From IMG/VR virus record IMGVR_UViG_3300025133_000030, positions 64,001 to 128,000 of that record: a stretch of 64,000 nucleotides of DNA; one strand, written 5' to 3'. Shown one piece after another: positions 1-3,669 of the stretch. This stretch comes from a virus. Both the position numbers and the translations under genes were made by a program. Position 1 is the first letter of the stretch. Each line of letters opens with the position of its first letter. Under the pieces are notes generated by a model. That model searched no databases. It saw only the letters and a program-made list of their open reading frames with translations, and had not been told where the DNA came from.

Positions 1-120
1 GAGTTTGGCGTTGGCATACTCGTAGAGATTATGTTCAACAACTATCGTGTCCTTTACCCAAGTGGCAAATGGTATTGGACCACCAAACCAGATTTGGAGT
101 TAATCAGTGAAAATCGGTGA
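1..120 (+). CDS. SH3/KOW-like mini-protein, array member 1 (5' truncated)
   Basis: Frame 1 reads EFGVGILVEIMFNNYRVLYPSGKWYWTTKPDLELISENR* and ends with the family C-terminal motif LE(L/V)(I/V)SE(N/S)R. Confidence 0.75.
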   Translation, partial: EFGVGILVEIMFNNYRVLYPSGKWYWTTKPDLELISENR

Positions 121-307
121 TCTGGTAAGATGTCCGAAAGAAGACCGCTACTGGTGGAGTGAGCAGGTTGGATTGGTTATAGGCTACGGTTATGGTGATC
201 AGGAAGGTGATGACCGAGATAAGTCTGCCTTGCACATTCTCATCGATGGCAACAAGCATGCAAGGTTCGGAGCCAATTTCTTGGAGTTGGTCAGTGAAAG
301 TCGGTGA
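107..307 (+). CDS. SH3/KOW-like mini-protein, array member 2
   Basis: MKIGDLVR...VGLVIG...FLELVSESR; GGAG SD upstream of GTG. Confidence 0.8.
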   Translation: MKIGDLVRCPKEDRYWWSEQVGLVIGYGYGDQEGDDRDKSALHILIDGNKHARFGANFLELVSESR

Positions 308-500
308 TCTTGTTAAATGGAGTGACTTTCAAATTGCGTGGAATTTAGTACACAATTCACATTTAAGAGACTTGACAGGCCAACGCCAGTGTGGTATTAT
401 AATAGATAATAACCCGATGTATTTTTTTATTCGCTGGGAAAATGGAGAAGTCCTTGCACAGAAAGAAGATGAACTCGCTGTCATCAGCGAAAGTCGGTGA
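294..500 (+). CDS. SH3/KOW-like mini-protein, array member 3
   Basis: GTG at 294 in the junction gives MKVGDLVKWSD...CGIII...FIRWENG...LAVISESR; the ORF-track start at 192 is an upstream extension. Confidence 0.8.
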   Translation: MKVGDLVKWSDFQIAWNLVHNSHLRDLTGQRQCGIIIDNNPMYFFIRWENGEVLAQKEDELAVISESR

Positions 501-687
501 TCTGGTAAAGATTGAAGGTGGGACGCTCAGGCCAGACTGGTACGGAGCGGTCGGAGTCGTCACTTCTCTAGAAAGCGAATGGGCCTATCGTATTTCAAAC
601 CATACTTGGTACAAAGTCGCGCTGCCTTCCCATGGAACAAAGATAATTCGCAATGATATGTTGATGGTGTTGAATGAAAGTCGGTGA
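469..687 (+). CDS. SH3/KOW-like mini-protein, array member 4 (junction start is GCG)
   Basis: AKVGDLVKI...AVGVVT...YKVAL...LMVLNESR; the junction start at 487 is GCG, nearest in-frame ATG at 469. Confidence 0.65.
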   Translation: MNSLSSAKVGDLVKIEGGTLRPDWYGAVGVVTSLESEWAYRISNHTWYKVALPSHGTKIIRNDMLMVLNESR

Positions 688-865
688 TTTGATTAAAGAT
701 AAATATGCATCCATTCCCAATTGGGGTCTTATTGTCTACAAGGATGAATACGGTGATGTCAATGCATATCATGTGTTGGTAAGCAATGGTAAGTTAGATT
801 ATCTTTCAAGAGATTATGTTGAAAACAGATGTGAGGTAGTCAGTGATTGTCGGAAAATTAGTTAA
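674..865 (+). CDS. SH3/KOW-like mini-protein, array member 5
   Basis: MKVGDLIK...WGLIV...YHVLVSNG...CEVVSD. Confidence 0.8.
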   Translation: MKVGDLIKDKYASIPNWGLIVYKDEYGDVNAYHVLVSNGKLDYLSRDYVENRCEVVSDCRKIS

Positions 866-1037
866 GATGTCTTGCCCGACTTCGTTCAGGTTACGTGGCT
901 ATGGGCTGGTGACGAAGATATCACACTACGATGACATCACTAGGTTGCCAAAAAGAGTGTATGTCCAGTGGCAAAAGCTGGTTGGTGAGCGTAACTGTGG
1001 AGTGATTCATTTGGAGGTTGTCAGTGAAAATCGGTAG
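843..1037 (+). CDS. SH3/KOW-like mini-protein, array member 6
   Basis: MIVGKLVK...YGLVT...VYVQW...HLEVVSENR; GAGG SD. Confidence 0.8.
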   Translation: MIVGKLVKMSCPTSFRLRGYGLVTKISHYDDITRLPKRVYVQWQKLVGERNCGVIHLEVVSENR

Positions 1038-1236
1038 TTTAGTGAGGTGGGCCAATCCGGCCGCACCGGGATTTGGCATCGTTGTCGGTGAATATGAGAA
1101 TCTCAGCGCCCTCGACGTCCTCAATGGGCACATTCTAGTCAAATGGTTCGATGGGGTTGGTTCTGGGGTAATCCCTAAAAATCATAAGTATTTGGAGTTG
1201 ATAAGTGAAACCCGGCGATCTAGTCAGGTGGTCTGA
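1024..1236 (+). CDS. SH3/KOW-like mini-protein, array member 7
   Basis: GTG at 1024 with GGAGG SD: MKIGSLVRW...FGIVV...ILVKWFDG...YLELISE. Confidence 0.8.
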   Translation: MKIGSLVRWANPAAPGFGIVVGEYENLSALDVLNGHILVKWFDGVGSGVIPKNHKYLELISETRRSSQVV

Positions 1237-1408
1237 CTGCATGAGTGCATGGCTTCGCCGCAGTAATTACTTGCACGATATAAGTCACCATCGGCAGCGT
1301 GGAATTATTTATGGTGAGAATCGAAAATACTATTTCGTTCGCTGGGATAACGGAGAGCGGCTTGCAGAAGCACCAGAGAACTTGGAGGTAGTCAGTGAAA
1401 ATCGGTGA
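1205..1408 (+). CDS. SH3/KOW-like mini-protein, array member 8 (paralog of member 3)
   Basis: MKPGDLVRWSD...RQRGIIY...YFVRWDNGE...NLEVVSENR. Confidence 0.8.
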   Translation: MKPGDLVRWSDCMSAWLRRSNYLHDISHHRQRGIIYGENRKYYFVRWDNGERLAEAPENLEVVSENR

Positions 1409-1574
1409 TTTGGTTGCTCATACAATGGACAGTGGTCCACCCGGCGTTGGGTTGGTGGTGGAGTTATCAAAAATAAGGCCCGGATGGGCCATGTGCAAAT
1501 TTATATGCAGGGATCAAGCGTGGTGGTATCCAATGAGTGTCTTGCATATTAAAGGATATAGAGAAAAGAAATGA
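1395..1574 (+). CDS. SH3/KOW-like mini-protein, array member 9 (59 aa, not in ORF track)
   Basis: GTG at 1395 with GGAGG SD: MKIGDLVAHTMDSGPPGVGLVVELSKIRPGWAMCKFICRDQAWWYPMSVLHIKGYREKK*; lacks the terminal junction, so it ends the array. Confidence 0.75.
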   Translation: MKIGDLVAHTMDSGPPGVGLVVELSKIRPGWAMCKFICRDQAWWYPMSVLHIKGYREKK

Positions 1575-1857: not shown

Positions 1858-1885
1858 TTATTCTATAAATGGGGTCACTTTTTTC

Positions 1886-1914
1886 TTGACTCGGCCTTAA
1901 TCTTATGATAGTAT
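1886..1914 (+). promoter_or_regulatory. Sigma70-type early promoter, copy 1
   Basis: TTGACT-17 bp-TAGTAT with extended -10 TG; preceded by TATAAATGGGGTCACTTTTTTC. Confidence 0.8.
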
Positions 1915-3532: not shown

Positions 3533-3567
3533 ATTGAAATTATTTTCACTTTCATGTCGTTTTTTTC

Positions 3568-3596
3568 TTGACATGGGGGTGAAAACCTGATAGTAT
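3568..3596 (+). promoter_or_regulatory. Sigma70-type early promoter, copy 3
   Basis: TTGACA-17 bp-TAGTAT, extended -10, followed by ACACAAGATGAGGG as in copy 2. Confidence 0.85.
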
Positions 3597-3669
3597 TATA
3601 TACACAAGATGAGGGTGCGGGCAAATTCCGCACCAAACCAAACACCAATGAAACCGAAAGGTACTTAGA

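Follow-up and report, generated by a model that had tools for sequence, protein, structure and literature searches.

The first 1,574 nucleotides of the window, the 64,000-nucleotide stretch of DNA analysed here, carry the end of a chain of small head-to-tail genes that, taken as a whole, is probably best explained as part of a library of barrel-protein genes, exchanged between phages as whole cassettes through homology within a short junction that is itself coding. The window corresponds to bases 64,001-128,000 of a 153.8-kb virus record (85% complete), whose phage was found in marine metagenomes and which, judging from the large ORFs of the genome, we take to be a T4-like myovirus. The genome encodes 24 genes of the family (49-74 aa), of which 16 form a main chain (window positions -1344 to 1574), seven form a second chain (about -4860 to -3606 in window numbering) and one is solitary, outside both chains. 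An initial sequence-only reading had placed an array of genes of 59-72 aa at positions 1-1574; the nine chained ORFs, with eight junctions between them, are indeed real, but the array starts upstream, these being the last nine genes of the 16-gene chain, and the genes in the window measure 49-70 aa. The 14-bp overlap that the same reading regarded as typical was found at six of the eight junctions, the other two being 23 and 32 bp. The features are as follows.

1-120, + strand: 3' part of a cassette gene of 49 aa, starting at window -29, eighth of the 16-gene chain
94-127, + strand: junction 1, with SD, GTG start and upstream stop, 14-bp overlap
107-307, + strand: cassette gene, 66 aa
281-314, + strand: junction 2, 14-bp overlap
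294-500, + strand: cassette gene, 68 aa, modelled as a barrel whose first loop contains a helical insert
372-400, + strand: predicted sigma70-type promoter inside the coding sequence of cassette 294-500
474-507, + strand: junction 3, degenerate, with GCG replacing the GTG start and without GGAG
487-687, + strand: cassette gene, 66 codons, without canonical start
661-694, + strand: junction 4, ATG start, 14-bp overlap
674-865, + strand: cassette gene, 63 aa
830-863, + strand: junction 5, divergent, 23-bp overlap
843-1037, + strand: cassette gene, 64 aa, deviant start IVGKLV
1011-1044, + strand: junction 6, 14-bp overlap
1024-1236, + strand: cassette gene, 70 aa, modelled as a five-stranded SH3/KOW/Tudor-like barrel
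1192-1225, + strand: junction 7, 32-bp overlap
1205-1408, + strand: cassette gene, 67 aa, old paralogue of 294-500 (51% aa identity), without -35 box
1382-1415, + strand: junction 8, 14-bp overlap
1395-1574, + strand: last cassette gene, 59 aa, without LEVISE end and with no 3' junction

The shared start and end motifs described earlier hold for most genes, the exceptions being the deviant start of 843-1037 and the missing LEVISE end of the last gene, which overlaps an unrelated gene downstream by 4 bp. Likewise, most junctions supply the SD and start of the following gene, as had been proposed, but junction 474-507 has neither GTG nor GGAG, and gene 487-687 consequently lacks a canonical start; it may be silent, or N-terminally extended from an in-frame ATG at 469 or 442, and it has no close relative among the 1,027 cassettes listed. 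Same-strain contigs deposited in ENA, JGI and Logan agree at 99.96-100% identity and in gene order, and unitigs of three runs cross the junctions without differences, demonstrating that the array is not an assembly artefact. Within the genome's own strain the array is invariant across eight contigs, suggesting that the rate of variation is not high within a clone.

The eight 33-nt junction copies in the window are 73-82% identical to the reference copy. An 18-nt junction word (allowing up to three mismatches) occurs six times in the window, compared with 0.09 expected in shuffles, and the genome carries 14 copies of it, all within the two arrays. Each ~33-bp junction serves two genes: it codes for the final strand and the stop of gene n, and to gene n+1 it contributes the ribosome site, the start and the initial strand. 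Across 509 distinct 14-bp junctions taken from related phages, L-E-V-I-S-E-S-R-stop is read in the upstream frame, and the downstream frame provides the SD, a GTG or ATG start and then K-V-G-D-L-V; the L-E codons of the upstream frame give the GGAG, its S-E codons give the GTG or ATG start, and the TGA stop of the upstream gene comes from the G-D codons of the downstream frame. Direct reading revealed an invariant GGTGA core and two TC(A/G)GTGA words 10 bp apart.

Conservation of the junction DNA goes further than the amino acids require. Comparison of synonymous sites inside and outside the junctions, as the sequence-only reading had proposed, showed a GTC:GTA ratio of 203 to 40 at a position that is synonymous in both frames in 314 de-replicated junctions, counted with the search pattern excluded, compared to 55% in gene bodies. 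The junction Asp, Leu and Ile codons are also biased, although incompletely (GAT 78%, TTR 71%), and a conserved internal Gly, serving as internal control, uses all four codons about evenly. At junction sites without dual coding, GGT is present in 106 of 153 cases, compared to 30% in gene bodies, which argues against the possibility, raised at the outset, that the two overlapping frames fully explain the conservation. Binomial p-values for the codon bias were set aside in favour of the de-replicated counts and the internal control, because the junctions are related by descent. The incomplete bias is as expected from homogenisation through repeated exchange, and it is possible that the junction has been selected for swappability.

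A scan with the junction word identified at least 118 viral stretches, giving, together with this genome, at least 119 loci with at least 1,027 family genes, which fall into 828 families at 80% identity among those listed; these relatives are metagenomic assemblies picked by the junction word, and the sample is biased towards consensus junctions. Searches for orthologous loci with flanking genes were dropped, since one yielded a single weak locus and the other none. Within this sample, strains sharing 99-100% identity, in pairs or sets, have whole-cassette differences whose breakpoints lie in the junctions (L007/L008, L074/L148/L113, L052/L108, L076/L079 and L025/L049). Junction-bounded gain, loss, replacement and reordering, predicted from the single sequence, were therefore seen among near-identical strains (L007/L008, L074/L148/L113 and L052/L108), in place of a fixed gene order free of junction indels. 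L007 carries one 176-bp cassette extra compared to L008, with a crossover identity of 20 bp; the cassette is absent from eight further contigs and present in one, mostly from one sampling campaign and not fully independent. The L074/L148/L113 locus occurs as X-Y-Z (three records, of which one is a Logan unitig), Y-Z and Y-X'; an interpretation of the L074/L113 difference as a swap through circle re-insertion was rejected, given that L148 favours two independent insertions. L076, L152 and L153 have a cassette that is missing from L079 and L151, and L052 and L108 differ by a changed order and replacements. A relative's unitig matches window 104-310 at ~86% and then continues into unlike sequence. 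Separate records from ENA, JGI and Logan, among them a k127 assembly and unitigs, show the alternative forms again.

Exchange between phages is also reflected in the loss of neighbourhood. The downstream neighbour is kept in four of the 138 homologous pairs at 75-97% identity, compared to 54 of 56 at 99.5% identity or above, and downstream synteny at 85-97% identity is 16% for cassettes versus 88% for other DNA of the same loci, used as control. The body of cassette -29 to 120 is 95% identical to a cassette of the distant phage L079, in which the neighbours differ, and the core genes of both phages share 67-72% identity, a comparison that indicates a recent single-gene transfer between distant phages. 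No adjacent or ≥90% identical duplicate is present within any of the 119 loci listed, at odds with the local duplication of whole genes suggested initially, and the within-locus homologue pairs in these 119 loci number three (79-87% identical, none adjacent). This near-absence of recent within-locus duplicates suggests that gains came mostly from other phages, and import seems to dominate over local duplication. In some variants (L151/L153) one breakpoint falls inside a cassette, showing that exchange is not strictly junction-limited; the alleles L151:3191-3397 and L153:718-924 are unlike L079 in the first half only, and recombination inside related cassettes apparently makes chimeric genes besides whole-gene swaps.

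The same data allow a by-product account, which we regard as unlikely, in which an ordinary paralogue family of old duplications retained its junction for translational coupling and fold, with no selection for swappability, and crossovers fall at the junction because it is the sole common homology and the only viable breakpoint. The mechanism would be identical to that of the exchanged library, the difference being confined to whether swappability is selected. Dual coding accounts for most of the fixed bases (GGT-GA giving the stop and L-E the GGAG), the strong but incomplete bias at GAT and TTR might reflect passive homogenisation, the genome contains old paralogue pairs, and indels also occur at promoter repeats outside the arrays in these phages. 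However, the silent bias persists at the GGT sites without dual coding, and the 828 families among 1,027 listed genes, with almost no recent local duplicates, are better accommodated by import from a shared pool.

Alignment of recombined loci placed the crossovers within the junction but not at one position. The match to the upstream cassette persists as far as about +9 and has disappeared by +15 to +21, and the match to the downstream cassette begins near -12 and reaches completion at about +16 to +22, with crossover windows spread from -13 to +20. Near-identical pairs gave mutually exclusive windows, some upstream of -7, -5 or +1 and others downstream of +1 or +15. Neither this genome (85% complete) nor any of five relatives rated complete by CheckV gave a match to a tyrosine or serine recombinase (Phage_integrase, PF00589, or Resolvase), in keeping with the earlier suggestion of an integrase-free system. 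Junction hairpins have mean dG values of -2.1 and -1.0 kcal/mol (z -0.6 and 0.0), none of them stable, and an attC-like R''..R' pattern is found in just six of the 1,027 cassettes listed. Given the dispersed crossovers and the absence of a recombinase match and of an attC-like hairpin in these searches, exchange is most likely to proceed by short-homology recombination; T4 recombination needs under 50 bp (PMC2839356). Joints in the read overlay that resembled deletions or circles were rejected, as they are 21-33-nt junction k-mers common to many phages, and neither a circle nor a recombination intermediate was seen in the contigs.

An unrecognised site-specific or targeted recombinase, of phage or host origin, for which the junction would be an att-like site as in integrons, appears very unlikely. 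The very sharp breakpoints, the invariant GGTGA core with its two TC(A/G)GTGA words and the indel that used only 20 bp of identity would all be consistent with such an enzyme, but no match to the corresponding domains was obtained in the genome (85% complete) or the five complete relatives, the crossover windows are incompatible with a single cut site, and neither a stable hairpin nor more than the six attC-like patterns was found. An artefactual origin of the shuffling, through mis-assembly of metagenomes at a short repeat common to many phages, is hardly credible: junction 31-mers reach a depth of 200-2,200 compared to 6-20 for the genome, scaffold gaps lie at junctions in L138 and L151, and L066 and L077 share 100% identity on the downstream side of a junction but are unrelated on the upstream side, as a chimera would look, but the same order over 7-15 cassettes is found across separate samples and assemblers, both indel forms recur in separate records, Logan unitigs carry alternative neighbours (L149 versus L150; X2 record 14), and the moved cassettes are 85-97% identical alleles rather than copies.

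Alignment of the 24 members is confined to four parts, the KVGDLV start, a central G-hydrophobic strand, a VxW strand and the LEVISESR end, with a mean column identity of 24%; only the barrel core is conserved, and the loops differ in both length and sequence. Structural models of 1024-1236 (pLDDT 86.1) and 294-500 (pLDDT 89.7) both contain five strands, of which the first follows KVGD and the last is LEVIS; from general knowledge of the SH3 fold, these two strands presumably pair to close the barrel. Fold searches with both models returned KOW, Tudor, PWWP and other SH3-like barrels (Z 6-7.6, with ties across families), the best matches having an rmsd of about 2 Å over 50-56 residues at 9-25% identity, and nearly all being SH3-like; with all Z values below 8, the matches are generic. 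The models (pLDDT 86 and 90) and fold searches thus support the assignment of these two members as five-stranded SH3/KOW/Tudor-like barrels, in agreement with the fold first read from the sequence. Spt5/NusG KOW, the UvrD C-terminal Tudor, CarD and YorP similarly form five-stranded barrels of about 60 residues, although the known SH3/KOW/Tudor barrels share 9-25% identity with the members and none of these families is clearly favoured. Among phage folds, the SH3/Tudor-like clusters are the largest, and they represent the commonest unexplained phage fold (PMC12487901).

Searches of Pfam, PHROG and PADLOC gave no family at useful E-values for the 24 members, and 71 relatives produced scattered weak hits alone in family libraries. 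Profile hits to named barrel families were weak (PWWP E 0.034, Spt5 E 0.4). Atlas neighbours (DHFR_2, DsrB and SH3-C_UBE2O, 0.86-0.87) were below lead strength. Profile search expanded the family to 5,782 clusters at 50% identity; P0083 (1,712 aa, 13 stretches) was discarded as a spurious HYR-repeat match and is not a family member. P0001 (127 aa) consists of two family domains fused at the junction, indicating that a frame change at the joint can yield tandem barrels. The dN/dS of cassette bodies is 0.16-0.21, and an ORF of 40-85 aa follows 279 of the 286 strict junctions, suggesting that the proteins matter; the cassette proteins are under purifying selection.

Strong early-type predicted promoters precede the chains, and the array sits in a small-gene region that holds eight of the ten strict sigma70-type promoter matches of the genome. 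No promoter-like site was found in the junctions themselves by promoter search. The predicted promoter inside cassette 294-500 (TTGACA-17-TATTAT, extended -10, score 11/12) is present at the same site in two homologous cassettes of other phages (L016:7035-7235 and L035:11162-11371), in which the boxes are kept and the spacer is changed. Such internal sites were observed in five of 943 cassettes, compared to 0.75 expected, three of them in the 294-500 family, and cassettes of this type may boost transcription mid-array.

A role in host interaction or counter-defence, by analogy with the T-even IP proteins, would be consistent with the early-type promoters, the fast turnover and the sharing among phages, a proposal to which we would give roughly even chances. 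A narrower alternative, in which KOW/Tudor folds would mimic transcription or translation factors, is rather improbable. Mimicry of the RNA-polymerase-binding Tudor (UvrD, CarD) or KOW domains in particular is not claimed, because the fold ties are not above background.

Combining these analyses, we favour a library of single-domain SH3/KOW/Tudor-like early genes that would be swapped whole between related marine T4-like phages by recombination within 20-33 bp of homology that is itself coding. Since the junction supplies the last and first barrel strands, a crossover anywhere within it would keep both genes intact and in frame, each with ribosome site, start, stop and undamaged terminal strands. 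The exchange would be carried out by phage RecA/UvsX-type recombination or by short-homology annealing at replication forks, mainly between co-infecting phages; a RecA-family gene is present in the genome (E 4e-36). Repeated exchange would homogenise the junction, and translation is likely to be coupled along each chain from sigma70-type early promoters. The most speculative step, which could equally well turn out right or wrong, is that the fixed barrel would display variable loops binding varying host proteins, possibly defence systems or the transcription/translation machinery. We put forward only tentatively, and with some doubt, the full form of this proposal, a self-perpetuating and enzyme-independent binder library traded gene by gene across a marine phage clade, in which the scaffold's terminal strands would carry both the recombination site and the expression signals, the junction would be selected for swappability, and thousands of loop variants would serve as affinity reagents against host defence or expression machinery.

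Integrons, which comprise IntI, attI, attC and Pc, resemble the array in that promoter-headed single-gene cassettes are gained, lost and reordered, occasionally with a cassette carrying its own promoter (predicted in the case of the array). However, integrons have IntI, an attC hairpin and a fixed crossover, none of which was found here, and the array cassettes, unlike those of integrons, are all paralogues with a coding joint. The comparison to integrons in the sequence-only reading is therefore useful as an analogy and does not extend to the mechanism, given crossovers without a fixed site and no attC-type hairpin. In polymorphic toxin loci (CdiA VENN, Rhs and MafB), cassettes are exchanged through conserved coding motifs, and there too a conserved coding motif provides the homology for swapping variable modules. 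These loci fuse a silent C-terminal module onto one long gene, whereas an array cassette is by itself a whole gene that looks expressed, and the motif common to the array is read in two frames.

The closest precedents come from T4-type phages. PeSL (promoter-early stem-loop) cassettes were described in phages RB49/phi1 (Arbiol et al. 2010, PMC2839356), whose authors also drew the integron comparison and demonstrated mini-circles. Similar to the array, PeSL are repeated short linkers in an early, variable region of a T4-type phage, with no integrase, and bound indels and replacements of small genes, in their case ORFans moved via homologous recombination. The PeSL linker is intergenic and contains a promoter and a stem-loop, whereas the array junction is coding in two frames with neither promoter nor hairpin; moreover, PeSL carry unrelated genes, whereas the array joins one protein family and its junction encodes the terminal strands. 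The T-even IP/ip1 loci (Repoila et al. 1994, as described in PMC2839356), with more than 30 variants, likewise place small variable genes at a repeat-associated locus of T4-type phages, and IPI* is a counter-defence inhibitor (PMC4437046). These loci have few genes and promoter-based repeats, compared to 24 genes per genome and thousands of one-fold variants for the array, and the IP proteins are packaged in the capsid through a capsid-targeting N-terminal peptide; the array proteins show no sign of packaging, and in the two modelled members the N-terminus belongs to the barrel. The array was not found described in a literature search, most subscription papers lying outside its coverage. The initial view of an undescribed system can hence be retained for the architecture, as far as searchable papers go, but the principle of linker-mediated modular shuffling has been published (PMC2839356).

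The novelty lies in a linker that codes in two frames, forms part of the fold and serves one very large paralogous family common to phages. The junction does five jobs, providing stop, ribosome site, start, both terminal strands and crossover homology, and the system is a remarkably clear natural example of Botstein-type linker-mediated modular evolution, with breakpoints in many wild genomes mappable to a window of 33 bp. The family is large, uncatalogued and under purifying selection, and the array offers a large natural variant set for testing what SH3/Tudor-like barrels do. If the members were binders of host defences, the family would supply new inhibitors in large number and a naturally occurring library built on a small scaffold.

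A family member searched against 50,697 GenBank phages had no match, and the AAA ATPase beside the arrays reached at best 24-28% identity in the same set, so that no cultured relative can be assigned. The junction word was also found in seven GTDB contigs (L129-L135), all from marine MAGs labelled Halobacteriovorax, Legionellales, Flavobacteriales and Acidiferrobacteraceae; five of the seven match proteins of this phage, and these contigs are probably mis-binned phage DNA. The MAG labels were consequently discarded as host evidence.

Just upstream of the arrays lie a pair encoding a MoxR-like AAA ATPase and a DUF2201 (metallopeptidase/VWA) protein, and a thrombospondin type 3 repeat protein (L001:3722-6081 and L001:7771-9081); the AAA-DUF2201 pair is near the arrays in many related loci. 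Two more divergent family-like genes upstream (L001:6255-6684 and L001:1469-1801; HMM E 0.0006-0.05) have no junction and are possibly older or founder members. Between the two chains, a tRNA gene (L001:11495-11567) with the anticodon TTT on direct reading, for Lys, was the only match in an Rfam search. Just downstream of the array, three promoter-containing direct repeats (window 1858-1914, 2390-2464 and 3540-3615), of 57 nt, up to 84% identical and with a common 19-nt tail, head small-gene modules and resemble PeSL. Among the relatives, indels at promoter-like repeats outside the arrays were observed in L043/L068 and L052/L108, and L074 and L150 differ by an indel at a 78-bp repeat.
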